In this document: one piece after another, positions 33,386 through 39,783 of the stretch | Position numbering within the stretch: the stretch's first letter is position 1 | Layout: each line of letters opens with the position of its first letter | From: Aulosira sp. ZfuCHP01 | GTDB taxonomy: Bacteria > Cyanobacteriota > Cyanobacteriia > Cyanobacteriales > Nostocaceae | Assembly: GCA_034530575.1 (NCBI GenBank) | Contig: JAVRCU010000042.1 | Location: 6,648-70,647, forward strand | Direction of reading: 5' to 3' | Length of the DNA stretch: 64,000 nt | Made by a program: the position numbers and the translations under genes | The notes under the pieces: model-generated | Told to the model about the DNA's origin: nothing | Seen by the model: only the letters and a program-made list of their open reading frames with translations | Database searches by the model: none

Positions 33386-34396
33386 TTAGCGACCCGTCAT
33401 TTGCTCCAGCTTTTCAGGATAGCGATCGCCTTGCACCGCAATCTTGGAGGCCGCATCATTGATGTCACGCAAATCGTCGGGCGTGAGTTCAACTGAGACT
33501 GCCCCAATGTTTTCCTCCAAGCGATGCAGCTTTGTGGTGCCTGGAATCGGAACAATCCACGGCTTTTGAGCCAGCAGCCAGGCGAGGGCTATTTGAGCAG
33601 GCGACACCTGCTTCTGTTGGGCGATGCTGCCGAGCAAATTAATCAAAGCTTGATTTGCCTTGAGCGCCTCCGGCGTAAAGCGAGGCAGGGTGCTGCGGAA
33701 GTCGGAACTGTCGAAGGTCGCGTTTTCATCAATCTTGCCTGTGAGAAAGCCCTTTCCTAGTGGGCTGTATGGGACAAAGCCGATGCCGAGTTCCTCCAGG
33801 GTGGGTATCACTTCCACTTCAGGCTTTCTCCACCAAAGTGAGTACTCGCTCTGAAGCGCCGTCACGGGCTGAACGGCGTGCGCGCGCCGGATTGTTTGCA
33901 CTCCTGCTTCGGAAAGTCCAAAGTGCTTAACCTTACCTTCCTGAATCAGTTGCTTCACTATTGCTGCCACGTCTTCAATCGGCACGTTCGGGTCAACCCG
34001 ATGCTGGTAGAGCAAGTCAATGCTCTCAACCTTGAGCCGCTTGAGCGAACCCTCAACAGCTTGCTTGATGTGTTCCGGTCTGCTATTCAGTCCTGGCGAA
34101 CCCTTCATGCCACGGGGATCGGAATTCGGACTGATGTCGAACCCAAATTTGGTTGCTATAACGACTTGCCCACGAAAAGGAGCAAGAGCTTCGCCCACAA
34201 GCTCTTCGTTCAATAATGGGCCGTAGACCTCGGCGGTGTCAAAGAACGTAACGCCGCGTTCGACGGCGGCCCTCAAAAGAGCAGTCATCTCCTGCGTGTC
34301 TTTGGGCGGGCCATAAGAAAAGCTCATTCCCATACAGCCCAGCCCGATTGCCGAAACTTCCAGGTTGCTGTTGCCAAGTTTGCGTACTTGCATCAT
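33386..34396 (-). CDS. Aldo/keto reductase (AKR, Tas/YajO-like)
   Basis: The sequence [19 protein letters not shown]...[10 protein letters not shown] contains the AKR catalytic Asp/Tyr/Lys/His context. The GC content is high, around 55-58%. Confidence 0.9.
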
Positions 34397-34416
34397 TCCT
34401 CCAGGCTAATATTGCC

Positions 34417-35403
34417 TTAATCGTAGTTTTCGTTTCCAACTGCCCTTGCACCTTGCACCTCAATCTTTGAGGTCGCTGTATCAATGTCACGCAGATCTTC
34501 GGGCGTGAGTTCGACGGAGACTGCCCCGATGTTCTCCTCCAAGCGATGTAGCTTTGTAGTGCCTGGAATCGGAACAATCCAAGGTTTCTGAGCCAGCAAC
34601 CAGGCAATCGCGATCTGAGCCGGGGTCGCTTGCTTCCGTTGGGCGATCGCGTTAAGCAGATCGACTACAGGCTGGTTCGCTTTCCGAGACTCCGGCGTGA
34701 AGCGAGGCATGAGGCTGCTGCGGATGTCAGAACTGTCGAACTGGGTATCTGCGTTGATCTTCCCCGTAAGGAATCCCGACCCTAGAGGACTCCAGGGAAC
34801 AAAGCCGATCCCTAACTCCTCGCAGGTTGGCAGGATTTCCGGTTCCGGGTCTCGCACCCAGAGAGAGTATTCGCTTTGGACGGCAGTAACGGGCTGGACG
34901 GCATGTGCCCGCCGGATCGTTTGCGCTGCTGCTTCAGAAAGTCCGAAGTGCTTCACCTTGCCTTCCGCAATTAGATCCTTCACTGCACCCGCCACCTCTT
35001 CGATCGGCACTTGGGGATCGACACGGTGTTGATAGAAGAGATCGATTACGTCCGTCTTGAGGCGCTTGAGCGATGCCTCAGCCACCTGCTTGATGTGTTC
35101 GGGTCGGCTGCTGCGCCCCCGTCGCTCCCTCGTCTGCGGATCGATATCGAAGCCGAACTTGGTGGCGATCGCCACCTGGTCACGAAAGGGGGCAAGGGCT
35201 TCGCCAACGAGTTCTTCGTTGATGAACGGACCATACACTTCGGCGGTGTCAAAGAAGGTAATGCCCCGATCGACCGCAGCATGAAGCAGGTCAGTCATTT
35301 CCTGTGTGTCTTTGGGCAAACCATAGTTGGCGCTCATGCCCATGCAGCCAAGGCCAATAGCCGAGACTTCCAGATTGCTGTTTCCAAGTTTGCGTTTTTG
35401 CAT
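34417..35403 (-). CDS. Aldo/keto reductase (tandem paralog of the preceding AKR)
   Basis: The start is placed at the internal [14 protein letters not shown], where GGAG lies 8 nt upstream of the ATG at 35403. The tracked ORF extends to 35502 with a non-homologous 33-aa leader. Protein identity to the neighbouring AKR is about 75%, and nucleotide identity is about 85% over long stretches. Confidence 0.88.
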
Positions 35404-35461
35404 TGTTTTTCTCCATTGATTTGCAATTGATAGTGTTTGCCATCGATTGATCCTGCTGTTG

Positions 35462-36112
35462 TCAGTCGCCTTCGCTGCGATCGCTGCTGACTGTGGGATC
35501 ATTGATGCGAGATGAGGCGGTCTTATAACCCCAGCGAGGCCAGAGATAGAAGAGGTTGAGAAGGACGAAGATCAGCACGGACAGCCAGGGCATAACCAGT
35601 GCCACCACGGTAGCGATCGCATACACAGTCGGCCCAACGAGAAACTGCCGATTGAGTTTCCGTATCTTTGTTGCCGTGGTGTGAGCACTGAGCAACTGCC
35701 CTCCACGAGCTGCATACTGCCACATGACGTTGACGAAGATCCCAATAACAGTCAAGATCCCACCGTAGAACGCAGCGGCAATTGGCTCGTCCGTTCCCCG
35801 GTGAAACGCTTCGGCAAGTACGGCGGTTGGAAACGGCAGGAATGCGATGAGCATCAGGTGGAGGACGTTCAGTAGCAACAGCGTTCCATCCACGCGAACG
35901 ATGTGTTTGAACATGGCGTGGTGGTTGATCCAGATTGCGCCGATCACCAGAAAGCTCACGACGTAGGCGAGGTAAGAAGGCCAGAGATGGAGGAGTGCTG
36001 CCCCAAGCGCCGTATCCGGTGGTGGCACTTTGATTTCAAGCACCAGCAGGGTAATGGCGATCGCGAATATGCCGTCGCTAAATGCCTCCAAGCGAGTGGT
36101 ATCCACGCTCAC
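35462..36112 (-). CDS. DUF1211 / TMEM175-family membrane protein (bacterial K+ channel homolog)
   Basis: The N-terminal [21 protein letters not shown] is the family signature (helix 1 FSDGxxAIAITLL), and six transmembrane segments are predicted. Confidence 0.75.
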
Positions 36113-38071: not shown

Positions 38072-38082
38072 AAATAGATGCT

Positions 38083-38493
38083 CTATTGGTTTACGTTTGA
38101 TGTCTGGTATTGCTCATCACTGACCTGTTCCAGCCAGCCCACAGGCTTGCCGTCAAGCCATTCCTGAATGGCGATGTGCGTCATCGCTGTGGTTGGGGTC
38201 GCACCGTGCCAATGCTTCTCACCCGGCGCGAACCAGATTACGTCTCCGGGTCGAATTTGCTCGATCGCTCCGCCCCAGCGTTGTGCAAGGCCGCAGCCAA
38301 CCGTCACGATCAGGGTCTGTCCCAACGGGTGGGTGTGCCATGCTGTCCTAGCACCAAGCTCGAATGTGACACTAGCACCAGATGTGCGTGCTGGATCGTG
38401 TGCCTCGAACAGGGGGTCAATGCGGACAGTGCCGATAAAATACTCGGTCGGCCCTTTGGCAGAAGGCTGTGAGCCACTTCTTTTGATGTCCAT
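38083..38493 (-). CDS. Cupin-domain protein
   Basis: The cupin motifs G(x)5HxH...G and the second motif around [17 protein letters not shown] are present ([16 protein letters not shown]). Confidence 0.7.
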
Positions 38494-38772
38494 TTGCTTA
38501 ATTCCTTCACTTGAGGCTATTTCGGTGGCTAGCCCAATCGTAGAGATTGAGTACTTATCGCTTCCTCTATCAGTAGGGATGGGAATTTTTTAAGAAGCAA
38601 GGTAGCCTTGACGCCATTTTGGTTGTCAGTAGACGAATTTCTTGCCCCATCAAAGCTGAGTTTTCTCTTGAATAAAAATCTAGAATGCTTACAAGCAGCC
38701 GGAATCATTTTTCATTGCTTTAGCTTCATTCTATGAATCCTGAAAGGCAAGCAATAGAACAATCGTCTAAGA

Positions 38773-39783
38773 TTGTTGTACGATCCTGCAAACTTAGAAA
38801 TGAACGCTGTCAAAACAATTGAAAAGTCTGATATGGATTTAATGAACGACTCGCAGGCAAAGCGCGAGACAGACAGAACGCAAGCCAACAGAGAGGAACT
38901 GAAAGAGCGGATTGCACAGGCTATTCGTCATGATGGGGCAATTGAGCCGCTCAAAGGTTTGCACTTTAAACGCACCTCCTCACCTGGGGAATGCGTTCAT
39001 GATGTCTCTGTACCTGCCTTTTGTGTAATTGCTCAGGGCAGCAAAGAAGTTCTTCTGGGCAGCGATCGCTATCAGTACGATCCAATGCATTATCTGCTGG
39101 CTACAGTCGAACTGCCAATTATCAGCCAAATTCTCCAAGCGTCCAAGGAGCAACCGTTTCTTAGTCTTCGCCTCGATCTCGACCCTACCCTGGTCGGTTC
39201 AGTCATGGTTGAGGCGGGCTATCCCTCACTCCAAAGGGGTGCCAATGTTAAAGCGATCGATGTGAGTCCATTGGATGCGCCGCTGCTAGATGCTGTAGTC
39301 AGGCTTGTTCGGCTTCTGGACTCTCCCAGCGAAGCTCGGGTTCTGATGCCACTGCTCGCACGGGAAATCATTTACCGACTCCTGATGGGAGCGCAAGGTA
39401 GTCGGCTCCGTCATATTGCAGTTCTAAGTGGCTACACCCACCACATCGCTCTTGCCGTTGAGCGACTTCGTAAAGACTTTAATCAGCCGCTGCGGATTGA
39501 AAGTATTGCCCGAGAGCTAGGAATGAGTGTCTCAGGCTTCCATCATCACTTCAAGTCTGTCACTGCAATGAGTCCTTTGCAGTTCCAGAAGCAACTGCGG
39601 CTCCAGGAGGCTCGTCGGCTGCTGCTGGGGGAAAACCTTGACGCTACCAGTGCTGCCTACCGTGTGGGTTATGACGATGCTTCGCACTTCAACCGGGAAT
39701 ATAAGCGAATGTTTGGTGCACCACCGATGCGCGATGTGGAAAGGCTGCGAGAAGCTGTTAGGGAGACTGCTAGTTCAATATGA
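38773..39783 (+). CDS. AraC-family transcriptional regulator
   Basis: There is a C-terminal double HTH (FHHHFKSVTAMSPLQFQKQLRLQEARRLL...AYRVGYDDASHFNREYKRMFGAPP) and an N-terminal AraC-type effector domain. It is transcribed divergently from the cupin/ADH/SDR block. Confidence 0.85.
   Translation: MLYDPANLEMNAVKTIEKSDMDLMNDSQAKRETDRTQANREELKERIAQAIRHDGAIEPLKGLHFKRTSSPGECVHDVSVPAFCVIAQGSKEVLLGSDRYQYDPMHYLLATVELPIISQILQASKEQPFLSLRLDLDPTLVGSVMVEAGYPSLQRGANVKAIDVSPLDAPLLDAVVRLVRLLDSPSEARVLMPLLAREIIYRLLMGAQGSRLRHIAVLSGYTHHIALAVERLRKDFNQPLRIESIARELGMSVSGFHHHFKSVTAMSPLQFQKQLRLQEARRLLLGENLDATSAAYRVGYDDASHFNREYKRMFGAPPMRDVERLREAVRETASSI

Follow-up and report, generated by a model that had tools for sequence, protein, structure and literature searches.

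Composition and extent of the island

The window analysed here is a stretch of 64,000 nucleotides from contig JAVRCU010000042.1 of the cyanobacterium Aulosira sp. ZfuCHP01. At positions 33322-39893 it carries an island of 6572 bp with seven genes, which encode two aldo/keto reductases (AKRa and AKRb), a homolog of the TMEM175 channel, a short-chain dehydrogenase/reductase (SDR), a zinc-dependent alcohol dehydrogenase (ADH), a cupin and an AraC-family regulator. A gene for a major vault protein (MVP) homolog lies to its left, and the sulfate transport genes cysW and cysT lie to its right. We consider it fairly likely that this GC-rich block is a real, horizontally acquired cassette, and as such an island of an ordinary kind. 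Its immediate source was probably cyanobacterial and not a high-GC donor. By analogy with an aldehyde-responsive operon of Escherichia coli, it is most likely a cassette for sensing and reducing toxic aldehydes.

Base composition was compared with a background of 45 segments of 6.5 kb from the window, none of which overlapped the island. The GC content of the island was 0.524, against 0.412 ± 0.015 elsewhere in the window (maximum 0.448; z = 7.3). Its tetranucleotide usage had an L1 distance to the background of 0.439 versus 0.133 ± 0.020 (z = 15), and its dinucleotide delta* was 101 versus 33 ± 11 (z = 6.3). The deviation by which horizontally acquired islands are recognized was thus present in GC content, tetranucleotides and delta* alike, and the sliding-window comparison bore out the compositional break noted in the preliminary description.

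The rise in GC content was abrupt, and in segments of 300 nt five of the island genes peaked at 0.53-0.60. In AKRa, AKRb, TMEM175, ADH and cupin, overall GC was 54-57% and GC at third codon positions (GC3) was 0.60-0.67 (z = 4.4-5.6), relative to 0.359 ± 0.055 in 40 background open reading frames (ORFs) of the window. The jump from about 40% to 55-58% that had been described for the whole block therefore holds for these five genes, but not for the regulator gene (51% GC; GC3 0.49, z = 2.4) or for the SDR gene, which is essentially host-like (46.5% GC; GC3 0.43, z = 1.4). ORFs of at least 90 aa occurred at 2.28 per kb in the island and at 0.85 per kb outside it (a 2.7-fold difference). This agrees with the dense opposite-strand ORFs reported before and is what GC-rich DNA is expected to give.

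Pfam confirmed all seven genes with the content originally listed (two Aldo_ket_red, TMEM175, adh_short, ADH_N plus ADH_zinc_N, Cupin_2, and AraC_N plus HTH_18). From the regulator outward, the genes are ordered cupin, ADH, SDR, TMEM175, AKRb and AKRa on the minus strand, with the regulator divergent from them on the plus strand.

An empty site in Nostoc sp. T09

The limits of the island were set by comparison with Nostoc sp. T09, in which the syntenic site is empty, a check that the preliminary description had proposed for related Nostocales. There, MVP is followed by a spacer of 312 bp, an intact 84-aa NIL-domain gene, cysW and cysT; in the window the island takes the place of this spacer. 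The flanks of T09 share 86-90% nucleotide identity with the window (MVP 89.6%, cysW/cysT 88.5%). In blastn, homology ended at 33321, 5 nt past the MVP stop codon, and restarted at 39894. The NIL-domain gene of T09 scored 69 bits with PF09383, and T09 positions 12943-13075 aligned at 85% with a remnant in the window. Relative to T09, the window has a deletion of 244 bp next to cysW, which took away the 5' half of this gene and the spacer that follows.

The preliminary description had also placed the island where cysA would be expected after cysW. The empty site of T09 speaks against this, as the gene after cysW is the NIL-domain gene and cysA is absent, which rules out that the island displaced cysA. 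The motif pair of ABC ATPases (Walker-A plus LSGGQ) occurs nowhere in the window.

Nostoc sp. T09, 106C and RF31YmG share one clade, SYMB-1, with these Aulosira metagenome-assembled genomes (MAGs) (PMC10999742). One of the latter, Aulosira sp. DedVER01a, is a MAG from coralloid roots of Dioon edule, with a size of 8.2 Mb and a GC content of 41.3% (PMC10999742). Identical proteins are also annotated in Aulosira sp. ZfuVER01. Since the source is a MAG from a coralloid-root community, foreign DNA might in principle have been joined into the contig during assembly or binning. We regard such an artefact as next to impossible. The island lies within a contig of 74 kb with cyanobacterial genes on both sides, its junctions are identical in a separate Logan assembly, it contains 10 sites of the cyanobacterial octamer HIP1 (see below), and homologous clusters occur in the complete genomes of Nostoc punctiforme PCC 73102 and Oscillatoria nigro-viridis PCC 7112.

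Relatives and origin of the island

Genomes and metagenome contigs were surveyed as samples, not as censuses. ADH and TMEM175 were searched database-wide for their nearest taxa, which had been proposed as a test of foreign origin, and for these two proteins the best matches were cyanobacterial. ADH had relatives of 88-97% identity in many cyanobacteria, and the named hits were nearly all Nostoc, Microcoleus, Leptolyngbya, Trichocoleus and Oscillatoria. Relatives of TMEM175 (75-90%) were cyanobacterial wherever a taxon was named; the top match among metagenomic sequences stood at 90%, and among named genomes Aliinostoc came nearest, with 84%. In other cyanobacteria the related clusters sit at unrelated loci and vary in content (Table 1).

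PCC 7112 and Microcoleus sp. Pol11C3 have an 843-aa protein upstream of the cluster and a DNA_pol_A_exo1 gene downstream of it in both genomes. Judged by sequence, these two clusters differ through genes that were gained or lost at the site itself.

Relatives outside the cyanobacteria were found in species-representative genomes. Among the matches listed, ADH reached 82-84%, AKR 86-87% and cupin up to 80% identity in Bryobacteraceae, Terracidiphilus, further Acidobacteriota, Pirellulales and Verrucomicrobiota. These three genes adjoin one another there and lie next to a divergent AraC_N regulator of 40-43% identity. In neighbour-joining (NJ) trees, the cyanobacterial AKRa clade had a bootstrap value of 98 and its grouping with Bryobacteraceae and Pirellulales one of 83, while the cyanobacterial cupin clade reached 89. 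Both clades are embedded among Acidobacteriota, Planctomycetota and Verrucomicrobiota sequences, a phylogenetic incongruence of the kind expected after transfer. The clusters of these phyla equal their flanks in GC content (e.g., 0.617 vs 0.636 and 0.569 vs 0.556), whereas the cyanobacterial clusters lie 4-12 GC points above their own flanks at the measured loci (including L003 and L005, and excluding Aliinostoc, Microcoleus Pol11C3 and Chroococcidiopsis). Because the clusters match their flanks in the other phyla and are richer than them in cyanobacteria, the difference points to transfer from a high-GC soil pool to cyanobacteria.

The preliminary description had proposed uptake from a high-GC donor. 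In its strict form, namely that the whole seven-gene block came recently and directly from a high-GC, non-cyanobacterial donor, this appears very improbable. It would account for the GC content of 52% versus 41%, for the identity of 80-87% of cupin, ADH and AKR to the clustered genes of Acidobacteriota and Pirellulales among the matches listed, and for the nucleotide identity of 83% between AKRa and a Bryobacteraceae gene. However, closer relatives exist in many cyanobacteria (88-97% at the protein level, 84-93% at the nucleotide level), and the regulator is 83-87% identical to those of other cyanobacterial clusters but only 40-43% to those of acidobacterial clusters. The non-coding control region is common to cyanobacteria only, and the SDR gene does not have the GC content of such a donor. 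Moreover, the island holds 10 HIP1 octamers (GCGATCGC), where 0.19 were expected from a Markov model, which amounts to 1.52 per kb and is comparable to the 0.96 per kb found elsewhere in the window; in other phyla, homologous clusters have 0-1 such sites. Within the island, ADH and cupin carry none and TMEM175 carries three. Since HIP1 occurs at about the density of the host, we infer a long residence in cyanobacteria. Hence, horizontal acquisition as such stood up to the comparison, given the empty site in T09, the different loci of the relatives and the similarity of cupin, ADH and AKR to clustered genes of high-GC phyla, whereas direct or recent uptake from a high-GC donor did not.

Nucleotide matches show the island to be a mosaic. 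Positions 36204-39794 match RF31YmG at 88% and 34471-36161 match Microcoleus Pol11C3 at 80%; for AKRa, matches of 84-86% are found in N. punctiforme and PCC 7112. The HIP1 sites, the conserved control block described below, this mosaic and the host-like SDR are the reasons why the immediate source is considered to be cyanobacterial.

Alternatively, the cluster could be native to cyanobacteria and vertically inherited, its high GC content being due to selection or codon bias and its position to rearrangement within the genome, with no transfer between phyla. Such a history would suit the presence of an AraC_N plus ADH cluster in every SYMB-1 member examined, the enrichment of HIP1, the cyanobacterial best matches, and the nucleotide identity of 88% between the right-hand module and RF31YmG, which is similar to the divergence of the flanks from T09. 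We nevertheless find it quite improbable. Three adjacent genes are 80-87% identical to those of other phyla, yet among the matches listed the ADHs of Pseudanabaena and Chamaesiphon are only 70-72% identical to the island ADH and fall into a group of their own, supported at 100%. In trees where other phyla predominate, AKRa and cupin of cyanobacteria form clades on short branches, and the dinucleotide signature deviates as well as the GC content. Finally, the copies of Nostoc and Microcoleus are 88-91% identical, far above the protein identity that is typical between orders.

We return to horizontal acquisition in two stages. The cupin/ADH/AKR core would have arisen in high-GC soil bacteria, in a pool of Acidobacteriota, Planctomycetota and Verrucomicrobiota, and would have entered cyanobacteria once or a few times. 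Within cyanobacteria it would have gained the cyanobacterial-type regulator region, HIP1 sites, the host-like SDR and the TMEM175 gene, and since then terrestrial cyanobacteria would have exchanged and reshuffled the cluster in mosaic form. The present copy was probably drawn from this cyanobacterial pool and not directly from a high-GC donor, either through transfer or because the cluster moved within the lineage.

Several observations weigh against this history. At the island borders there is no integrase, transposase, tRNA or flanking direct repeat. The trees are NJ trees on a sample of genomes, and the clade of island-type cyanobacterial ADHs has a bootstrap value of only 30, so that the argument on origin is based on AKRa, cupin and the identity values. 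The view that the island was probably inserted here, and not deleted in T09, is based on composition and phylogeny. Furthermore, GC3 remains at 0.60-0.67 in the cyanobacterial copies despite the gain of HIP1, which simple amelioration fails to explain; HIP1 gain and compositional amelioration appear to be uncoupled.

Insertion via direct repeats, a tRNA or an integrase was considered as a mechanism and set aside, as the borders bear no such marks. The window as a whole contains no tRNA gene, and the island borders have no flanking repeats. The nearest integrase gene (45004-46275) is about 5 kb away, beyond the cys genes, and hence does not provide the mobility hallmark found at the borders of many islands. 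MVP was of no use as an anchor for finding more empty sites; beyond T09, the nearest MVPs (at most 84%) are in cyanobacteria outside the Nostocales.

If correct, the island would be a clean worked example of gene flow in two steps, from a soil-bacterial core to terrestrial cyanobacteria and on to a mobile mosaic cluster that includes cycad symbionts.

Regulator and control region

The regulator resembles YqhC of E. coli over nearly its full length (36% identity and 57% positives over 249 aa; E = 3e-49), and both proteins have the same Pfam architecture, AraC_N (PF06719) plus HTH_18. Conservation among orthologs indicates that its start codon is most likely the ATG at 38800, not the TTG at 38773 given in the ORF list. 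YqhC activates the divergent yqhD-dkgA operon upon exposure to glyoxal, furfural and other aldehydes (PMC5297802; PMC6115493; PMC8262776).

Within the control region between cupin and regulator, a block of about 165 bp (38634-38799) had a mean column identity of about 91% across seven cyanobacteria of two orders, and is thereby better conserved than the neighbouring coding DNA (80-86%). Directly upstream of the start codon of the regulator lies an imperfect palindrome (38766-38798; TCTAAG...GAT(C/T)GTACAACAATC...TTAGA). An RNA element in this region was ruled out: Rfam gave no match in the block beyond one at chance level (E = 0.74), and RNAalifold found no covariation, its covariation term being positive (unfavourable) and meaningful compensatory pairs being absent. 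Simple scans for promoters and terminators were uninformative. A terminator-like hairpin, with 10 pairs followed by a T run, is present at 39840-39863 on the minus strand.

The same spacer has an indel of about 100 bp (38508-38625), flanked by direct repeats of about 20 bp (CCACCGAAATAGCCTCAAGTG and CAACCAAAATGGCGTCAAGG, minus strand). The segment is present in the window, in one of two Nostoc MAG contigs (L005), in PCC 7112 and in RF31YmG, and absent from the other contig (L003) and from N. punctiforme. It looks, from its sequence, like a small insertion element or a miniature inverted-repeat transposable element. The copy of PCC 7112 also carries heptamer tandem repeats.

Enzymes, channel and predicted function

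The cupin scored 193.1 bits with NF049940, the equivalog of (R)-mandelonitrile lyase, which has a cutoff of 140 bits. Its residues 1-130 aligned with the (R)-hydroxynitrile lyase of Granulicella tundricola (GtHNL; PDB 4BIF; E = 1.8e-66), and H53, H55, Q59, H94, H96 and H106 are all identical in this alignment. We take H53, H55, Q59 and H94 to be the metal ligands of GtHNL. H106 has been described as the catalytic base of cupins of this type (PMC13556127).

ADH had its best PDB matches in E. coli YahK (1UUF; 462 bits) and in the plant sinapyl/cinnamyl ADHs (1YQD; 408 bits). As it remained below the cutoff of the Ahr equivalog NF047908 (332 vs 470 bits), it is filed only as a YahK-like zinc-dependent medium-chain dehydrogenase/reductase of the cinnamyl-ADH type. 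The SDR is of the classical type, without specific family assignment. Orthologs of 92-93% identity, also with 45-46% GC, occupy the same position in the clusters of N. punctiforme and Nostoc RF31YmG. An SDR at this position occurs only in Nostoc-type clusters; the non-cyanobacterial clusters hold only SDRs of at most 32% identity to it.

AKRa and AKRb both matched perakine reductase best (AKR13D1; PDB 3UYI; E = 5e-81 for AKRa), with a best score of 276 bits, followed by AKR13B2 with 172 bits; all NCBIfam equivalogs stayed below their cutoffs. The AKRb ORF spans 34417-35502, and its start is most likely Met34 (35403), as in the NCBI record. AKRa is 89-91% identical to the genes of N. punctiforme and Oscillatoria PCC 7112 and, among the matches listed, 86-87% to those of Bryobacteraceae and Pirellulales, while for AKRb the relatives in the loci compared did not exceed 78%. 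A recent tandem duplication was ruled out for the pair: AKRa and AKRb share 77% identity, none of 100 bootstraps placed them as sisters, and AKRb is as distant from the acidobacterial AKRs as from AKRa.

The TMEM175 protein belongs to the TMEM175 K+ channel family, as predicted from its domain, signature and six-helix length. It matched CmTMEM175 (PDB 5VRE) with E = 1e-41, and the RxxxFSD signature of its first transmembrane helix is conserved. Wherever the flanking sequence sufficed, relatives sharing 75% identity or more were without exception part of an ADH-TMEM175-AKR block, and the spacing from TMEM175 to AKR is 58 nt in the window, Aliinostoc and Microcoleus alike. An AKR acting as Kv-beta-like subunit of the channel is unlikely, given 109-115 bits with TIGR01293 against a cutoff of 365 and an adjacency limited to one shallow lineage.

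In combination, these predictions fit an AraC-controlled regulon for the detoxification of carbonyls, as the preliminary description had suspected, since a YqhC homolog diverges from an operon with an aldehyde reductase and AKRs, as in yqhC/yqhD-dkgA. By this analogy, the regulator would respond to reactive aldehydes or electrophiles and would switch on the operon from the shared region of 306 bp. The NAD(P)H-dependent ADH, SDR and two AKRs would reduce aldehydes or ketones to alcohols, and the cupin would take as its substrate a compound derived from an aldehyde, for instance a cyanohydrin, or would act in another aldehyde-linked reaction. The TMEM175 channel may adjust K+ and H+ under electrophile stress. 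Two points count against this explanation: neither ADH nor the AKRs reach any NCBIfam equivalog cutoff, and which ligand induces YqhC itself is not known (PMC5297802).

The cluster might instead form a pathway dedicated to the breakdown of, or the defence against, a specific compound derived from plants or soil, and not serve in a general defence against reactive carbonyls. Candidates are cyanohydrins, from which the cupin would free aldehyde and hydrogen cyanide, with the reductases clearing the aldehyde, or aromatic aldehydes from lignin or host tissue. The affinity of the cupin to GtHNL and its predicted retention of the catalytic residues (PMC13556127), the closeness of ADH to YahK and plant sinapyl/cinnamyl ADHs and of AKR to perakine reductase, and the occurrence of the cluster in cyanobacteria that live on land or in symbiosis with plants, as well as in soil bacteria, are all compatible with this idea. 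We still deem it unlikely, because no nitrilase, rhodanese, cyanase or glycosidase is found in or beside the cluster, some cyanobacterial versions lack the cupin or have a different one (Aliinostoc, T09), and GtHNL-type cupins are not known to have an established natural role.

A more particular proposal concerns the channel. In E. coli, K+ efflux through KefB and KefC, with the accompanying acidification of the cytoplasm, protects against glyoxals (PMC5297802). TMEM175, induced together with the reductases, would likewise let K+ out and H+ in and so acidify the cytoplasm under aldehyde stress, in the manner of Kef but with a protein of an unrelated family. We hold this to be distinctly doubtful; relatives of TMEM175 with at most 67% identity have no ADH or AKR neighbours, and many versions of the cluster lack the channel. 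If true, it would be the first physiological role for bacterial TMEM175 proteins.

No description of this cyanobacterial cluster turned up in the literature searched, although the searches were not aimed at the cluster. Accessory AraC-regulated carbonyl-reductase clusters that spread horizontally are a kind already well known. The current understanding is unchanged, and the use of these results lies mainly in annotation and in a lead for the physiology of reactive carbonyls in symbiotic Nostocales. For bacterial TMEM175 channels, the island is also a candidate for their physiological context. Moreover, it ties the GtHNL cupin, which is used in biotechnology, to a conserved context of YahK-like ADH and AKR, a link that could help to find the natural substrate of this cupin.

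Other features of the window

The coordinates of the island, its flanks and the related clusters are collected in Table 1.

Table 1. Features at the island site and related clusters in other cyanobacteria. Labels of loci outside the window are given under position; L090 is the empty site of Nostoc sp. T09, and L003 and L005 are Nostoc MAG contigs.
Feature	Position	Strand	Remarks
MVP homolog, left flank, 874 aa	30692-33316	+	Vault, MVP_shoulder and related domains; GC3 0.347; host-like composition; outside the island
AKRa, aldo/keto reductase, 336 aa	33386-34396	-	AKR13-like; last operon gene; PF00248 259 bits; GC3 0.605
AKRb, second aldo/keto reductase, 328 aa	34417-35403	-	PF00248 266 bits; GC3 0.625
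TMEM175/DUF1211 six-helix K+ channel homolog, 214-216 aa	35462-36112	-	PF06736 110 bits (cutoff 25); GC3 0.668
Classical SDR, 248 aa	36202-36948	-	PF00106 180 bits; GC 46.5%; GC3 0.434
Zn-dependent medium-chain ADH/aldehyde reductase, YahK/cinnamyl-ADH type, 349 aa	37022-38071	-	ADH_N plus ADH_zinc_N
Putative Mn-cupin of the GtHNL family, 136 aa	38083-38493	-	First operon gene; NF049940
Divergent control region, 306 bp	38494-38799		Between cupin and regulator; from alignment of cyanobacterial clusters
YqhC-type AraC-family regulator, 327 aa	38800-39783	+	AraC_N 173 bits; HTH_18 84 bits
Right-end island spacer	39784-39893		No homolog in T09 or other clusters; limits from blastn
NIL-domain gene remnant (3' 129-133 nt; C-terminal ~43 codons)	39894-40025	-	Adjoins the cysW stop codon; 85% to T09
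cysW, sulfate ABC permease, right flank	40026-40901	-	TIGR02140 391 bits, above cutoff; host-like composition
cysT, sulfate ABC permease, right flank	40888-41772	-	TIGR02139 417 bits, above cutoff; host-like composition
N. punctiforme PCC 73102 cluster	L083		About twelve genes; complete genome
O. nigro-viridis PCC 7112 cluster	L086		Regulator / cupin-ADH-AKR; complete genome
Nostoc RF31YmG cluster	L088		Cupin-ADH-SDR-AKR
Aliinostoc cluster	L093		SDR-ADH-TMEM175-AKR
Microcoleus Pol11C3 cluster	L094		Cupin-SDR-ADH-TMEM175-AKR; same chromosomal site as PCC 7112
Chroococcidiopsis cubana cluster	L095		Beside integrase and IS4/Mu transposases
Nostoc sp. T09 cluster	L176		Regulator 87%, unrelated AKR 32%, ADH 97%, different cupin; surrounded by cobalamin-biosynthesis-type genes (CbiC, CbiJ, TP_methylase)

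The MVP of the window is full-length, with Vault repeats and a shoulder domain, and is annotated elsewhere as 'colicin uptake protein'. Its closest relative is in Nostoc sp. T09 (94%), followed by proteins of at most 84% identity in Leptolyngbyaceae, Aerosakkonema and Microseira. Because its nearest relatives besides T09 are outside the Nostocales, MVP looks like an accessory gene in this order, as judged from sequence comparison. Bacterial and cyanobacterial MVPs have been described before (bioRxiv 10.1101/872010; PMC3762200).

Left of the island, the segment 26206-30629 (4.4 kb), which includes an ORF for an SNF2-family helicase of 1101 aa (26754-30059, plus strand), has no counterpart in Nostoc sp. 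T09. As T09 has about 500 bp between an acetyltransferase gene and MVP, this segment is a second strain-specific indel, with host-like GC content. On the right, a second paralog of the sulfate-binding protein (43560-44723, in the segment 43344-44997) is represented in T09 by a remnant of 120 nt only. The adjacent tyrosine-integrase gene (45004-46275; 423 aa, 34% GC) is intact in the window; T09 aligns there but has only short ORFs. Positions 19001-20000 are the lowest-GC kilobase of the window (30.7%). The ORF at 19456-19830 (124 aa) has about 30% GC at every codon position, and this region is probably non-coding or foreign AT-rich DNA.

Comparison with known systems

Like other compositionally atypical islands, the present one combines an abrupt shift in GC, GC3 and oligonucleotide usage with an empty site in a relative, a variable location and phylogenetic incongruence. 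Unlike many of them, it has no integrase, tRNA target or flanking repeats, and it has already gained HIP1 sites. Because HIP1 had accumulated in the island, its immediate transfer would have been within cyanobacteria.

With the glutathione-gated K+ efflux systems KefB/KefC, the island shares a K+-conducting membrane protein tied to defence against electrophiles and aldehydes, a speculative likeness that is one of functional analogy only, since the channel is of the unrelated TMEM175 family and not of Kef/CPA2. The cupin compares with the acidobacterial Mn cupins GtHNL and AcHNL (PDB 4BIF, 4UXA), given its score above the NF049940 cutoff and the predicted conservation of its active site; Acidobacteriota also cluster this cupin with the same ADH and AKR. 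It differs from them in being cyanobacterial and in heading a reductase operon with a regulator, and is a putative lyase. The ADH resembles YahK and Ahr (YjgB), which are NADPH-dependent aldehyde reductases with a broad substrate range, and the plant cinnamyl/sinapyl ADHs in domain architecture and best structure matches; the score below the Ahr cutoff and a different genomic context set it apart from YahK and Ahr.

The closest parallel is yqhC/yqhD-dkgA, where an activator with AraC_N and HTH_18 likewise diverges from an operon with an NADPH-dependent aldehyde reductase and an AKR. Its reductase, YqhD, belongs to the iron-type group III ADHs, whereas that of the island is a YahK-like zinc-dependent medium-chain ADH. 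The AKRs of the island are nearest to perakine reductase, not to DkgA, and its operon adds a cupin, an SDR and a TMEM175 channel. The comparison suggests that aldehyde sensing of the YqhC type extends to cyanobacteria.

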